The notes under the pieces are model-generated. The model saw nothing but the letters and a program-made list of their open reading frames with translations, was not told the DNA's origin and made no database searches. A stretch of DNA of 64,000 nucleotides from Eledone cirrhosa. Taxonomy: Eukaryota. Of the stretch, positions 6,431-56,491 are shown piece after piece (the stretch's first letter is position 1; the number at the start of each line of letters is the position of its first letter). The stretch covers positions 72,912,001 to 72,976,000 of the forward strand of contig OZ024745.1 of the NCBI GenBank assembly GCA_964016885.1. Reading direction: 5' to 3'. Position numbers and translations under genes: made by a program.

Positions 6431-8933
6431 TTGGAATAAATGCTCTGAAATAGCGATATATATGTGAGTATAGACATAGAATATTCGAAAATATTCTGTA
6501 TGTTTATAATAAACATTTTGAAGACCTAATCGCTATAGAATAGAATACGTCACGTATTACAATTAGATTCTCGATAAAAGCAAGGGAAGTAATCTACGCG
6601 TTTCATTCTTGTTAGAATTCATCAGGACTACATATCCAGTGCTTTTATCGAGAATGACACAGCTAGAGACTTATAGAATACTTAGCTGTGTACTGGAACT
6701 GGTTTGAAAGAGCGGTTGCCGGTCCGGCAGAAATTAGAAATTGGAATAAATGCTCTGAAATAGCGATATATATGTGAGTATAGACATAGAATATTCGAAA
6801 ATATTCTGTATGTTTATAATAAACATTTTGAAGACCTAATCGCTATAGAATAGAATACGTCACGTATTACAATTAGATTCTCGATAAAAGCAAGGGAAGT
6901 AATCTACGCGTTTCATTCTTGTTAGAATTCATCAGGACTACATATCCAGTGCTTTTATCGAGAATGACACAGCTAGAGACTTATAGAATACTTAGCTGTG
7001 TACTGGAACTGGTTTGAAAGAGCGGTTGCCGGTCCGGCAGAAATTAGAAATTGGAATAAATGCTCTGAAATAGCGATATATATGTGAGTATAGACATAGA
7101 ATATTCGAAAATATTCTGTATGTTTATAATAAACATTTTGAAGACCTAATCGCTATAGAATAGAATACGTCACGTATTACAATTAGATTCTCGATAAAAG
7201 CAAGGGAAGTAATCTACGCGTTTCATTCTTGTTAGAATTCATCAGGACTACATATCCAGTGCTTTTATCGAGAATGACACAGCTAGAGACTTATAGAATA
7301 CTTAGCTGTGTACTGGAACTGGTTTGAAAGAGCGGTTGCCGGTCCGGCAGAAATTAGAAATTGGAATAAATGCTCTGAAATAGCGATATATATGTGAGTA
7401 TAGACATAGAATATTCGAAAATATTCTGTATGTTTATAATAAACATTTTGAAGACCTAATCGCTATAGAATAGAATACGTCACGTATTACAATTAGATTC
7501 TCGATAAAAGCAAGGGAAGTAATCTACGCGTTTCATTCTTGTTAGAATTCATCAGGACTACATATCCAGTGCTTTTATCGAGAATGACACAGCTAGAGAC
7601 TTATAGAATACTTAGCTGTGTACTGGAACTGGTTTGAAAGAGCGGTTGCCGGTCCGGCAGAAATTAGAAATTGGAATAAATGCTCTGAAATAGCGATATA
7701 TATGTGAGTATAGACATAGAATATTCGAAAATATTCTGTATGTTTATAATAAACATTTTGAAGACCTAATCGCTATAGAATAGAATACGTCACGTATTAC
7801 AATTAGATTCTCGATAAAAGCAAGGGAAGTAATCTACGCGTTTCATTCTTGTTAGAATTCATCAGGACTACATATCCAGTGCTTTTATCGAGAATGACAC
7901 AGCTAGAGACTTATAGAATACTTAGCTGTGTACTGGAACTGGTTTGAAAGAGCGGTTGCCGGTCCGGCAGAAATTAGAAATTGGAATAAATGCTCTGAAA
8001 TAGCGATATATATGTGAGTATAGACATAGAATATTCGAAAATATTCTGTATGTTTATAATAAACATTTTGAAGACCTAATCGCTATAGAATAGAATACGT
8101 CACGTATTACAATTAGATTCTCGATAAAAGCAAGGGAAGTAATCTACGCGTTTCATTCTTGTTAGAATTCATCAGGACTACATATCCAGTGCTTTTATCG
8201 AGAATGACACAGCTAGAGACTTATAGAATACTTAGCTGTGTACTGGAACTGGTTTGAAAGAGCGGTTGCCGGTCCGGCAGAAATTAGAAATTGGAATAAA
8301 TGCTCTGAAATAGCGATATATATGTGAGTATAGACATAGAATATTCGAAAATATTCTGTATGTTTATAATAAACATTTTGAAGACCTAATCGCTATAGAA
8401 TAGAATACGTCACGTATTACAATTAGATTCTCGATAAAAGCAAGGGAAGTAATCTACGCGTTTCATTCTTGTTAGAATTCATCAGGACTACATATCCAGT
8501 GCTTTTATCGAGAATGACACAGCTAGAGACTTATAGAATACTTAGCTGTGTACTGGAACTGGTTTGAAAGAGCGGTTGCCGGTCCGGCAGAAATTAGAAA
8601 TTGGAATAAATGCTCTGAAATAGCGATATATATGTGAGTATAGACATAGAATATTCGAAAATATTCTGTATGTTTATAATAAACATTTTGAAGACCTAAT
8701 CGCTATAGAATAGAATACGTCACGTATTACAATTAGATTCTCGATAAAAGCAAGGGAAGTAATCTACGCGTTTCATTCTTGTTAGAATTCATCAGGACTA
8801 CATATCCAGTGCTTTTATCGAGAATGACACAGCTAGAGACTTATAGAATACTTAGCTGTGTACTGGAACTGGTTTGAAAGAGCGGTTGCCGGTCCGGCAG
8901 AAATTAGAAATTGGAATAAATGCTCTGAAATAG
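6431..8933 (-). repeat. 310-bp tandem array, left arm (8 units plus partial), retrozyme-like, HHR on minus strand
   Basis: Units start at 6431, 6741, 7051 ... 8911; HHR at 6589-6631 plus n x 310. Confidence 0.95.
6589..6631 (-). ncRNA. Type I hammerhead ribozyme (first minus-strand copy)
   Basis: Reverse complement of the 9138-9180 motif. Confidence 0.9.
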
Positions 8934-11790
8934 GTCTTCAAAATGTTTATTATAAACATACAGAATATTTTCGAATATTCTATGTCTATACTCACATATA
9001 TATCGCTATTTCAGAGCATTTATTCCAATTTCTAATTTCTGCCGGACCGGCAACCGCTCTTTCAAACCAGTTCCAGTACACAGCTAAGTATTCTATAAGT
9101 CTCTAGCTGTGTCATTCTCGATAAAAGCACTGGATATGTAGTCCTGATGAATTCTAACAAGAATGAAACGCGTAGATTACTTCCCTTGCTTTTATCGAGA
9201 ATCTAATTGTAATACGTGACGTATTCTATTCTATAGCGATTAGGTCTTCAAAATGTTTATTATAAACATACAGAATATTTTCGAATATTCTATGTCTATA
9301 CTCACATATATATCGCTATTTCAGAGCATTTATTCCAATTTCTAATTTCTGCCGGACCGGCAACCGCTCTTTCAAACCAGTTCCAGTACACAGCTAAGTA
9401 TTCTATAAGTCTCTAGCTGTGTCATTCTCGATAAAAGCACTGGATATGTAGTCCTGATGAATTCTAACAAGAATGAAACGCGTAGATTACTTCCCTTGCT
9501 TTTATCGAGAATCTAATTGTAATACGTGACGTATTCTATTCTATAGCGATTAGGTCTTCAAAATGTTTATTATAAACATACAGAATATTTTCGAATATTC
9601 TATGTCTATACTCACATATATATCGCTATTTCAGAGCATTTATTCCAATTTCTAATTTCTGCCGGACCGGCAACCGCTCTTTCAAACCAGTTCCAGTACA
9701 CAGCTAAGTATTCTATAAGTCTCTAGCTGTGTCATTCTCGATAAAAGCACTGGATATGTAGTCCTGATGAATTCTAACAAGAATGAAACGCGTAGATTAC
9801 TTCCCTTGCTTTTATCGAGAATCTAATTGTAATACGTGACGTATTCTATTCTATAGCGATTAGGTCTTCAAAATGTTTATTATAAACATACAGAATATTT
9901 TCGAATATTCTATGTCTATACTCACATATATATCGCTATTTCAGAGCATTTATTCCAATTTCTAATTTCTGCCGGACCGGCAACCGCTCTTTCAAACCAG
10001 TTCCAGTACACAGCTAAGTATTCTATAAGTCTCTAGCTGTGTCATTCTCGATAAAAGCACTGGATATGTAGTCCTGATGAATTCTAACAAGAATGAAACG
10101 CGTAGATTACTTCCCTTGCTTTTATCGAGAATCTAATTGTAATACGTGACGTATTCTATTCTATAGCGATTAGGTCTTCAAAATGTTTATTATAAACATA
10201 CAGAATATTTTCGAATATTCTATGTCTATACTCACATATATATCGCTATTTCAGAGCATTTATTCCAATTTCTAATTTCTGCCGGACCGGCAACCGCTCT
10301 TTCAAACCAGTTCCAGTACACAGCTAAGTATTCTATAAGTCTCTAGCTGTGTCATTCTCGATAAAAGCACTGGATATGTAGTCCTGATGAATTCTAACAA
10401 GAATGAAACGCGTAGATTACTTCCCTTGCTTTTATCGAGAATCTAATTGTAATACGTGACGTATTCTATTCTATAGCGATTAGGTCTTCAAAATGTTTAT
10501 TATAAACATACAGAATATTTTCGAATATTCTATGTCTATACTCACATATATATCGCTATTTCAGAGCATTTATTCCAATTTCTAATTTCTGCCGGACCGG
10601 CAACCGCTCTTTCAAACCAGTTCCAGTACACAGCTAAGTATTCTATAAGTCTCTAGCTGTGTCATTCTCGATAAAAGCACTGGATATGTAGTCCTGATGA
10701 ATTCTAACAAGAATGAAACGCGTAGATTACTTCCCTTGCTTTTATCGAGAATCTAATTGTAATACGTGACGTATTCTATTCTATAGCGATTAGGTCTTCA
10801 AAATGTTTATTATAAACATACAGAATATTTTCGAATATTCTATGTCTATACTCACATATATATCGCTATTTCAGAGCATTTATTCCAATTTCTAATTTCT
10901 GCCGGACCGGCAACCGCTCTTTCAAACCAGTTCCAGTACACAGCTAAGTATTCTATAAGTCTCTAGCTGTGTCATTCTCGATAAAAGCACTGGATATGTA
11001 GTCCTGATGAATTCTAACAAGAATGAAACGCGTAGATTACTTCCCTTGCTTTTATCGAGAATCTAATTGTAATACGTGACGTATTCTATTCTATAGCGAT
11101 TAGGTCTTCAAAATGTTTATTATAAACATACAGAATATTTTCGAATATTCTATGTCTATACTCACATATATATCGCTATTTCAGAGCATTTATTCCAATT
11201 TCTAATTTCTGCCGGACCGGCAACCGCTCTTTCAAACCAGTTCCAGTACACAGCTAAGTATTCTATAAGTCTCTAGCTGTGTCATTCTCGATAAAAGCAC
11301 TGGATATGTAGTCCTGATGAATTCTAACAAGAATGAAACGCGTAGATTACTTCCCTTGCTTTTATCGAGAATCTAATTGTAATACGTGACGTATTCTATT
11401 CTATAGCGATTAGGTCTTCAAAATGTTTATTATAAACATACAGAATATTTTCGAATATTCTATGTCTATACTCACATATATATCGCTATTTCAGAGCATT
11501 TATTCCAATTTCTAATTTCTGCCGGACCGGCAACCGCTCTTTCAAACCAGTTCCAGTACACAGCTAAGTATTCTATAAGTCTCTAGCTGTGTCATTCTCG
11601 ATAAAAGCACTGGATATGTAGTCCTGATGAATTCTAACAAGAATGAAACGCGTAGATTACTTCCCTTGCTTTTATCGAGAATCTAATTGTAATACGTGAC
11701 GTATTCTATTCTATAGCGATTAGGTCTTCAAAATGTTTATTATAAACATACAGAATATTTTCGAATATTCTATGTCTATACTCACATATA
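8931..11790 (+). repeat. 310-bp tandem array, right arm in inverted orientation (9 units plus partial), HHR on plus strand
   Basis: Reverse complement of the left arm; units start at 8931, 9241 ... 11721; HHR at 9138-9180 plus n x 310. Confidence 0.95.
9114..9202 (+). ncRNA. Type I hammerhead ribozyme (representative of 17 copies)
   Basis: gtagtc CTGATGA attct aaca agaat GAAA cgcg TA gattac: canonical core, GUA triplet, palindromic stem III acgcgt, and a 16-bp distal stem I (attctcgataaaagca/tgcttttatcgagaat). Confidence 0.9.
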
Positions 11791-55989: not shown

Positions 55990-56491
55990 ACAATATATAG
56001 AGAAACACACAGATACATGCGGACACATACATATACATGAATATATTCACATCTATCCTGAGTTAATGGTGCCAACCTTAACCGGTGTTGCTCTATGAAT
56101 AACTGGGACAAACCAATCCGAATGGATGAGACTGAACCAGTATCAGAGCTATAAAGTACATTATGAAGAGAGAAGAAACATTAGATATAATTAGTAATAA
56201 GATGTATCATACCTAAGAGGCTTGGCTCTGTTTCTTGACCGCTGTATCACGTGATTGACTCCCCCTCCGCCTTTAGGGATTCTATCTTGCATCTTACAGA
56301 CGTGTTTTGAAACCCTTAATGAGGTATCCTCTTGATAAGTCAGCAGACCTCACAAAAATTCTATATCTCTGTGATGTATTGTTTTTGATTATGCCACGAA
56401 ACTACGTAGTCGAGGAATTTAGAAGCAGTTTAGGTATGATACATCTTATTACTAATTATATCTAATGTTTCTTCTCTCTTCATAATGTACT
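55990..56491. repeat. Second locus of the 593-bp HHR family, as a head-to-head inversion
   Basis: 55990-56216 resembles 24303-24530; 56214-56491 is the opposite strand of the unit. Confidence 0.88.
56327..56416 (+). ncRNA. Type I hammerhead with U3-A8 core (copy 2)
   Basis: tcctc TTGATAA gtcagca..tgccac GAAA ctacgtag TC gagga. Confidence 0.75.

Follow-up and report, generated by a model that had tools for sequence, protein, structure and literature searches.

We find that three unrelated families of short repeats carrying hammerhead ribozyme motifs are inserted in the genome of Eledone cirrhosa as head-to-head pairs of arms with two fixed outer ends, nearly always one of each kind per inverted insertion, and that families of the Penelope-like element (PLE) type follow the same rule. 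The repeats, with units of 310, 420, and 593 bp, lie in a 64,000-nt stretch of contig OZ024745.1 (positions 72,912,001 to 72,976,000; assembly GCA_964016885.1, 3.0 Gb) that we call the window. We call the two outer ends L (long fixed 3′ end) and S (short fixed 3′ end). In inverted insertions of six families, 85 pairs join an L-ended arm to an S-ended arm, against one L+L pair (locus L199) and one possible S+S pair (L031, a 310 insertion ending at unit positions 139 and 115). That PLE machinery moves the units seems to us highly probable; they were probably laid down by a PLE protein, with its reverse transcriptase (RT) and GIY-YIG endonuclease, priming from both ends of a cut (TA)n tract at two internal sites of one RNA.

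Two fixed outer ends in inverted insertions

Inverted pairs were located by self-comparison of the window, which is rich in (TA)n and in LINE (long interspersed nuclear element) remnants, and other copies were sampled genome-wide as best-scoring matches (40 candidates scored per DNA search), hence young copies. The 310 set comprises 20 of 21 clusters among the first 150 listed of 395 matches, which with the window copy make 21 insertions. The first 593 set, the set for a second PLE, and part of the Hydra-type PLE set were picked by queries containing one end, a choice that biases which site is seen but not the site of the partner arm. An insertion seen at duplicate loci is counted once, and our counts leave out six long 420 arrays whose two ends are not in view, a diverged older 310 insertion at L046 (head-to-head too), and older neighbours in L084 and L092; two 310 junctions carrying inserts are left out of the overlap test only.

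Counted from the predicted hammerhead cleavage site, the outer ends fall at unit positions 163–169 (L) and 121–139 (S, blurred by a TA-like stretch within the unit) in the 310 family, 273–274 (L) and 214 (S) in the 420 family, and 241–246 (L) and 76–81 (S) in the 593 family, with the two sites about 30, 60, and 166 nt apart, respectively. The spacing is about 88 nt in the Hydra-type PLE, about 55 nt in the second PLE, and about 89 nt in a fourth hammerhead family. One end of each kind is found in 18 of 19 inverted 310 insertions (p = 4e-5 against independent choice), in 16 of 21 for 593, and in 9 of 13 for 420 (plus one near); among the PLE-type families the pairing occurs in 26 Hydra-type insertions (the edge of the locus cuts the L end of one) with a single L+L, in 10/10 of the second PLE, and in 6/6 of the fourth family. 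A query from the middle of the 593 unit retrieved six new inversions, five L+S and one off-site, with no S+S pair. Single-arm copies end at both sites, as in the 593 family (12 L-ended and 9 S-ended, each set being query-biased) and the Hydra-type PLE, and ends that lie off both sites mostly adjoin non-TA DNA. In a public sequencing run, which may be the assembly's own sample, loose ends of the 310 unit pass into (TA)n at 9003 (S, seven contigs) and 9034 (L, one contig). The rule of one long and one short end constrains the mechanism by which PLEs integrate.

Hammerhead units that match non-LTR retrozymes

All three units are tandem, free of open reading frames (ORFs), and carry one type I hammerhead motif each, with a palindromic helix III; the window holds 17 of the 310 motifs, one per unit. 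The cores read CTGATGA (310), CTGACGA (420), and TTGATAA (593), each with helices I–III, and the last is a U3-A8 variant of a kind known from PLE hammerheads (PMC4209133). A pattern match that demands intact flanks finds the core intact in 179/179 copies of 310, 53/53 of 593, and 49/59 of 420. Folding two copies of the 310 and 593 motifs recovers a double-hammerhead helix III, and a 74% identical relative of the 420 unit keeps the core while helix II is changed on both sides. Regional Rfam scans match the 310 motif weakly to HH9 (23 bits versus a cut-off of 52) and list no hammerhead in the 420 and 593 stretches, where the calls come from our own descriptor and folding; across the whole window, the 150 listed Rfam rows are microsatellite-driven miRNA matches.

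As dispersed head-to-tail repeats of a few hundred bp with no ORF and no long terminal repeat (LTR; primer-binding site and polypurine tract were given no separate search), the units match, in their sequence features, the published description of non-LTR retrozymes. Like the metazoan retrozymes of PMC7229834 and bioRxiv 10.64898/2026.07.22.740005, they are tandem repeats of low GC content without an ORF, have a single type I hammerhead in each unit, occur as dimers to multimers, and share a genome with PLEs; the 593 unit is longer than the 150–450 bp given in the former and within the 51–972 bp given in the latter. Unlike the published retrozymes, the arrays described here are two-armed and head-to-head, with two fixed ends. 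The main text of PMC7229834 does not mention inverted or head-to-head arrays or orientation, and the available text of the bioRxiv paper mentions neither tail, orientation, nor head-to arrangement.

The earlier note had asked whether any unit is the pseudo-LTR (pLTR) of a full-length PLE or occurs only without an ORF. No copy of the three units continued into an RT or GIY-YIG frame among 21 (310), 28 (420), and 43 (593) insertions, where the PLE matches present are separate neighbours. We find no sequence common to the three units, or shared by them with PLE ends, beyond low-complexity matches. Comparison with end sequences of three PLE-type families reveals no homology, whereas 24 of 57 Xenopus families match PLE ends (bioRxiv 10.64898/2026.07.22.740005). 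The units may still derive distantly from some other PLE family of the genome.

Such units could instead be PLE end repeats, or derivatives of them, that arrived as short inverted pairs, later expanded in place through unequal crossing-over; the multimers would then be satellites rather than products of rolling-circle reverse transcription. A satellite-growth route has been put forward (bioRxiv 10.64898/2026.07.22.740005), and six 420 loci (L070 and L074–L078, five of them on contig C28) are indeed long satellite-like arrays with 93–96% identity. The 310 family speaks against such growth, with 21 dispersed insertions nearly all identical to one unit and with arms that are both multimeric and of non-integer length, as does the lack, noted above, of run-on into PLE frames and of homology to PLE ends. 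We regard growth in place as improbable.

A circular template is somewhat more likely than not, a little less so than the two primings. Subfamily variants repeat in every unit of an array, as expected from a monomer circle, and the 310 arms are nearly invariant over 21 loci while ranging from 0.5 to 11.9 units in length. Circular folds of the units are predicted to be highly paired (not set against shuffled sequences). No RNA data set is listed among those containing the unit. In three public runs of unknown kind, the 310 unit assembles into a single contig of 340 nt, which in two of them closes on itself; tandem DNA explains such a contig equally well as a circle. No strand-change joint is listed in these contigs, so the window junction is not confirmed there.

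Head-to-head junctions and the route of integration

The earlier note had described strand flips at five places in the window (in the 310 and 420 families, twice in 593, and in the coding PLE), and all five are present, each with the antisense arm on the left and the sense arm on the right relative to the hammerhead or ORF strand, so that 5′ ends meet and 3′ ends point outward. Its description of a tandem arm on the left and a truncated one on the right does not hold as a rule, since both arms are 5′-truncated and either may be the long tandem arm. Among young 310 insertions 19/21 are inverted, all 19 of them head-to-head (p about 2e-6 at 50:50), while 21 of 43 distinct 593 insertions and 13 of 28 distinct 420 loci are inverted. 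Every directly joined inversion in the sampled copies is head-to-head, with targets that are mostly (TA)n, and tail-to-tail joins are absent from the inverted 310, 420, and 593 insertions sampled; polarity is thus non-random genome-wide in these copies, contrary to the outcome that the earlier note had named as fatal to its proposal.

The 5′ joins are scattered, with overlaps of 0–4 nt. Overlap at the 310 junctions averages 1.6 nt versus 0.76 expected (p = 0.007; the 17 of 19 junctions without an insert), and the 5′ starts in this family ignore the hammerhead cut (2/38 within 10 nt versus 2.6 expected). In the window, the reported microhomologies TAG at 8931 and TAA at 56215 are as described, and the duplicated segment reported at 25133 appears as an 18-nt templated insert. 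The proposed PLE overlap atttcaaaaa shrinks to the 4 nt AAAA, other copies reading ...CTTAGT-AAAACG upstream, and the inverted PLE arm, given earlier as 16591–16708, occupies 16505–16706, the extra 86 nt being the tail of the family. Templated inserts occur at some joins (window 25133, L031, and L108), which we take to resemble polymerase-theta end joining.

The two arms of one insertion have subfamily haplotypes in common. Differences between arms are fewer within than between insertions in the 593 family (30/3966, 0.76%, versus 1887/61992, 3.0%), the 420 family (66/3426, 1.9%, versus 1541/43751, 3.5%), and the PLE (52/2982, 1.7%, versus 775/28990, 2.7%), with permutation p at most 1e-4. This likeness points to one template or one source locus for both arms. 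Neither arm seems to be a fold-back copy of the other, because either can be the longer (S 3406 and L 1080 nt in one 310 insertion, S 311 and L 3510 nt in another) and can hold sequence that its partner lacks, as each arm of the window PLE does.

In having an inverted 5′-truncated copy at the 5′ end, a one-sided tail, and a microsatellite target, the retrozyme insertions agree with PLE-type insertion. Endonuclease-positive PLE units (Arkhipova et al. 2013, PMC3846280; Craig et al. 2021, PMC8557442) likewise show head-to-head arrangement, 5′ truncation, partial tandems, a tail at one end only, and (TA)n targets. Compared with the PLE units described there, the arrangement extends here to ORF-free RNAs, tails reach 55–166 nt rather than 30–40, counts are given for the one-long-one-short rule and for the haplotype agreement, and the junctions lack the palindromes that underlay the self-priming model. 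Inverted copies with a one-sided 30–40-bp tail are textbook knowledge for PLEs, and the parasite-host idea for retrozymes and PLEs has been published, mobilisation via circular RNA having already been proposed (Cervera and de la Pena 2020, PMC7229834; Li, Clavereau and Pollet 2026, bioRxiv 10.64898/2026.07.22.740005). The published link consists of shared hammerheads, co-occurrence, and end homology, and we add an integration footprint in three unrelated families. The origin of PLE inverted copies and tails and the enzyme that moves animal retrozymes are open questions in the literature (PMC8557442, PMC11167929, PMC7229834, and bioRxiv 10.64898/2026.07.22.740005), and a literature search that leaves out most subscription papers yielded no description of retrozyme arrays with two arms, no tails as long as 166 nt, and no counts of end pairing or arm haplotypes.

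We propose that tandem transcripts would be cut by double hammerheads and likely circularise, and that the PLE protein would nick both strands of a (TA)n tract. One target 3′-OH would then start at S and the other at L, aided by a match of 2–9 nt of AT sequence, and each RT would run 5′-ward, either round a circle with strand displacement or down a multimer, to yield 0.1–12 units. The cDNA 3′ ends could anneal through 0–4 nt or be joined by polymerase-theta-like end joining, after which each would prime the second strand of the other; where only one target end was extended, a single-arm copy would result. A left target 3′-OH copying sense RNA would lay down antisense sequence on the top strand and a right 3′-OH would lay down antisense on the bottom strand, so that two target-primed starts on sense RNA would give exactly the head-to-head geometry observed. 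Purified PAc protein (a Poseidon PLE from Anolis; Frangieh et al. 2024, PMC11167929), a predicted dimer, cuts and extends both strands of AT-rich targets in vitro and starts internally at two sites that bound the tail. Our case differs from that study, which shows no strand-specific start in vitro and does not cover non-autonomous RNAs, in that the two ends are coupled.

The earlier note had favoured a template-switching route, which fits poorly, since an arm may contain stretches that its partner lacks and single-arm copies terminate at both sites. One version of it would have a single RT make both arms, starting at the target and then either switching to antisense RNA or self-priming on a fold-back, with the endonuclease later cutting one arm at S and so leaving the one-sided tail. 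Both elements have precedents, in self-priming on an antisense template for head-to-head PLEs (PMC3846280) and endonuclease-mediated resolution for the tail (PMC8557442), and the scheme yields L+S pairs and common haplotypes naturally; 4 of 19 junction offsets in the 310 family, moreover, are under 20 nt. A fold-back, however, makes one arm a subset of the other, whereas either arm may be longer with unique sequence; the 310 offsets spread over 6–151 nt with overlaps of 0–3 nt and no palindromes; both sites terminate single-arm copies; and in vitro starts map to both tail boundaries (PMC11167929). We therefore consider a single RT unlikely. Two target-primed starts followed by end joining fit better than a single template switch because the arms are non-nested and both sites end single-arm copies, and two primings at two sites are in our judgement the probable course of events.

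Other routes to inversion are very improbable. In L1 twin priming, both target ends prime on one RNA to give a head-to-head 5′ inversion, but its second site varies and its arms are free of overlap, whereas the insertions described here have two fixed sites and carry two copies of one stretch. RTE-type LINE remnants are plentiful in the window and LINE twin priming would give the same polarity, yet the window's LINE copies terminate in (GAT)n, a sequence missing from the units. DNA transposons with terminal inverted repeats (TIRs) and target-site duplications, whose presence would have counted against the earlier note, do not account for the units: there are no fixed TIRs, arms measure 27–3679 nt, joins are scattered and differ, like arm lengths, from locus to locus, and the outer ends differ. 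Most targets are pure (TA)n, in which a target-site duplication cannot be read. The complete identity of the 310 arms (100%) is what an assembly fold-back artefact would produce, but read fold-back is excluded by flanks that are not mirrored, by outer ends that differ, and by arm differences of 0.8–1.9% in the older families.

Several observations weigh against paired priming at two sites of one, possibly circular, RNA. A single dominant source locus, or gene conversion between the arms, could likewise produce the haplotype match. Two arrays (L099 and L109) show period-2 variant patterns, for which dimeric templates or later unequal exchange account as well as monomer circles do, and the arms of L084 and L085 are set apart by a small number of linked differences. 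The pairing has its exceptions, namely the L+L pair, the 310 pair at 139/115, four Hydra-type cases that are unresolved or off-site, and five 593 and four 420 inverted insertions with an end that is off both sites or merely near one. The S and L sites of different families share no sequence or predicted structure beyond AT-rich ends, and the samples are best-scoring, young copies, some of them chosen by queries that included one end. The start site in vitro, finally, is no different between strands (PMC11167929), which by itself predicts L+L and S+S pairs too; the coupling of L and S would thus require an added assumption, that of one RNA held in an asymmetric complex.

In both L084 and L085, which are 593 loci, the same two linked variants, at unit positions 319 and 322, mark the arm that has no L end, a pattern hinting that different units of a multimeric RNA may serve the two starts.

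The earlier note's view of a PLE and several ribozyme RNAs as one system stands as regards ORF-free hammerhead units with a PLE insertion architecture. That the Hydra-type PLE of the window is the partner is doubtful, since the units share no sequence with the ends of this PLE and at least two other PLE-type end families in the window obey the same rule. More tentatively, with slightly less than even confidence, we suggest that PLEs and their ribozyme parasites share a coupled twin-start reaction, in which a dimeric RT would grip one RNA (a circle, for retrozymes) at two built-in start sites, one primed per strand of the cut (TA)n. The two RTs would chase each other round the template and the cDNAs join 3′ to 3′, making a separate second-strand primer unnecessary, and unrelated ribozyme RNAs would each have evolved their own pair of start sites to hijack the reaction. 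If true, this one mechanism would account for the inverted copy of PLEs, for the tail on one side, and for the retrozyme arrays. The 310-nt unit, near-invariant at 21 loci and with two start sites mapped to a few bases, offers a small defined template for the existing type of in vitro assay.

Coding PLEs and other elements of the window

The coding element at 16505–19212 is a Hydra-clade PLE, as judged by motifs and architecture against the published description of the clade. The family has a single ORF, RT then GIY-YIG, with RWR, HSDKT, CNCRNRADC, CDLC, and CKH motifs and (TA)n targets, and so shares with the clade (Craig et al. 2021, PMC8557442) a C-terminal GIY-YIG, DKT, a CxCX5C linker, CxxC, CxH, and (TA)n insertion, with RWR in place of RWK. 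Its unit of about 3.26 kb exceeds the length of generally under 3 kb given for the clade, and its hammerhead core is only a variant. This motif, CAGAAGA...GAAA, was seen by eye and is kept across Hydra-type copies; no canonical hammerhead was found in the pLTR of this PLE, and free folding did not recover the variant. The window copy has an RT frameshifted near 17200, YRVDG in place of YRDDG, the CxCX5C linker at about 17770–17796, and a stop codon at 18208–18210, while a frame of 713 aa runs without interruption in many of the 66 best genome matches. Pfam finds no family in two PLE fragments or in three other mobile-element frames scanned. Near-full-length copies (L200, L201, L202, L206, and L210) have 5′ ends bunched within the 40 nt that separate the L site from the start codon, which suggests a transcription start just past the tail.

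Table 1. Coordinates of retrozyme and PLE-type features in the window.
Feature	Position	Strand	Remarks
310 left arm, 8.1 identical units	6431..8933	-	Outer end L, unit position 164
310 right arm, 9.2 identical units	8931..11790	+	Outer end S, about 136-139; overlaps left arm by TAG (3 nt)
310 type I hammerhead motif, CTGATGA...GAAA	9138..9180	+	Helix III ACGCGT palindromic; predicted cut after 9174
13-bp direct repeat, left copy	6418..6430	+	Probable target-site duplication of the 310 insertion
13-bp direct repeat, right copy	11785..11797	+	First bases match S end of 310 unit as well
420 left arm, 1.5 units	21478..22091	-	Outer end S (unit position 214); core CTGACGA at 21722-21716
420 right arm	22092..22327	+	Blunt join to left arm; ends at unit position 221, abuts another hammerhead element
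593a left arm, 1.4 units	24303..25132	-	Outer end L (245); U3-A8 core TTGATAA at 24627, palindromic helix III
593a templated insert, 18 nt	25133-25150	+	Copied from adjoining AAAAACTC
593a right arm	25151-25242	+	Outer end at unit position 32, neither site; abuts other DNA
593b left arm	55990..56217	-	Outer end L (245)
593b right arm	56214..56491	+	Hammerhead core at 56332; outer end S (81); overlap TAA
Hydra-type PLE, inverted 3′ end	16505..16706	-	Ends at L site; 16505-16590 is the 86-nt tail
Hydra-type PLE body, 5′-truncated	16703..19212	+	RT, linker, GIY-YIG, 1-kb 3′ region ending at S
Hammerhead-like non-canonical motif in PLE end	19137..19190	+	CAGAAGA for CTGANGA
Second PLE family, C-terminal GIY-YIG	4827..6106	-	CX4CxxC linker; Neptune-like (motif only); single arm, L-ended
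Fourth hammerhead family	22328..22515	+	S-ended in window

The second PLE family has a hammerhead motif at about 5044–5090, and the fourth hammerhead family is likely the end repeat of a second Hydra-type PLE. At two places, 22327/22328 (fourth family) and L065:1895 (second PLE), a 420 sense arm is joined directly, with no (TA)n between, to a 5′-truncated PLE-type end; these joins came about either when the RT jumped from one template to another among PLE and retrozyme RNAs, in which case they would name partners, or when DNA between adjacent insertions was deleted. An apparent retrozyme-PLE chimera at L200 was rejected, a short (AT)n separating the two. A third, partial 420 copy without a hammerhead lies at 50855–50997 (+), covering unit positions 155–295.

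Scans found no hammerhead core in a 210-bp inverted pair (45655–45862 and 46397–46606, 97% identical) or in a 135-bp near-palindrome at 55491–55625. Three pairs of direct repeats with 93–99% identity lie at 12011–12308/12840–13137 (298 bp), 20451–20829/21048–21431 (about 380 bp), and 40910–41096/41576–41762 (187 bp). A transposase remnant at 22878–23732, presumably Mariner-like, has no Pfam match and is flanked by 100-bp TIRs in (TA)n. A frame at 37123–37635 (-) matches PF18861 (receptor protein tyrosine phosphatase, transmembrane-proximal; E 6.5e-11), and some of the window insertions may lie inside introns of a gene of this type.

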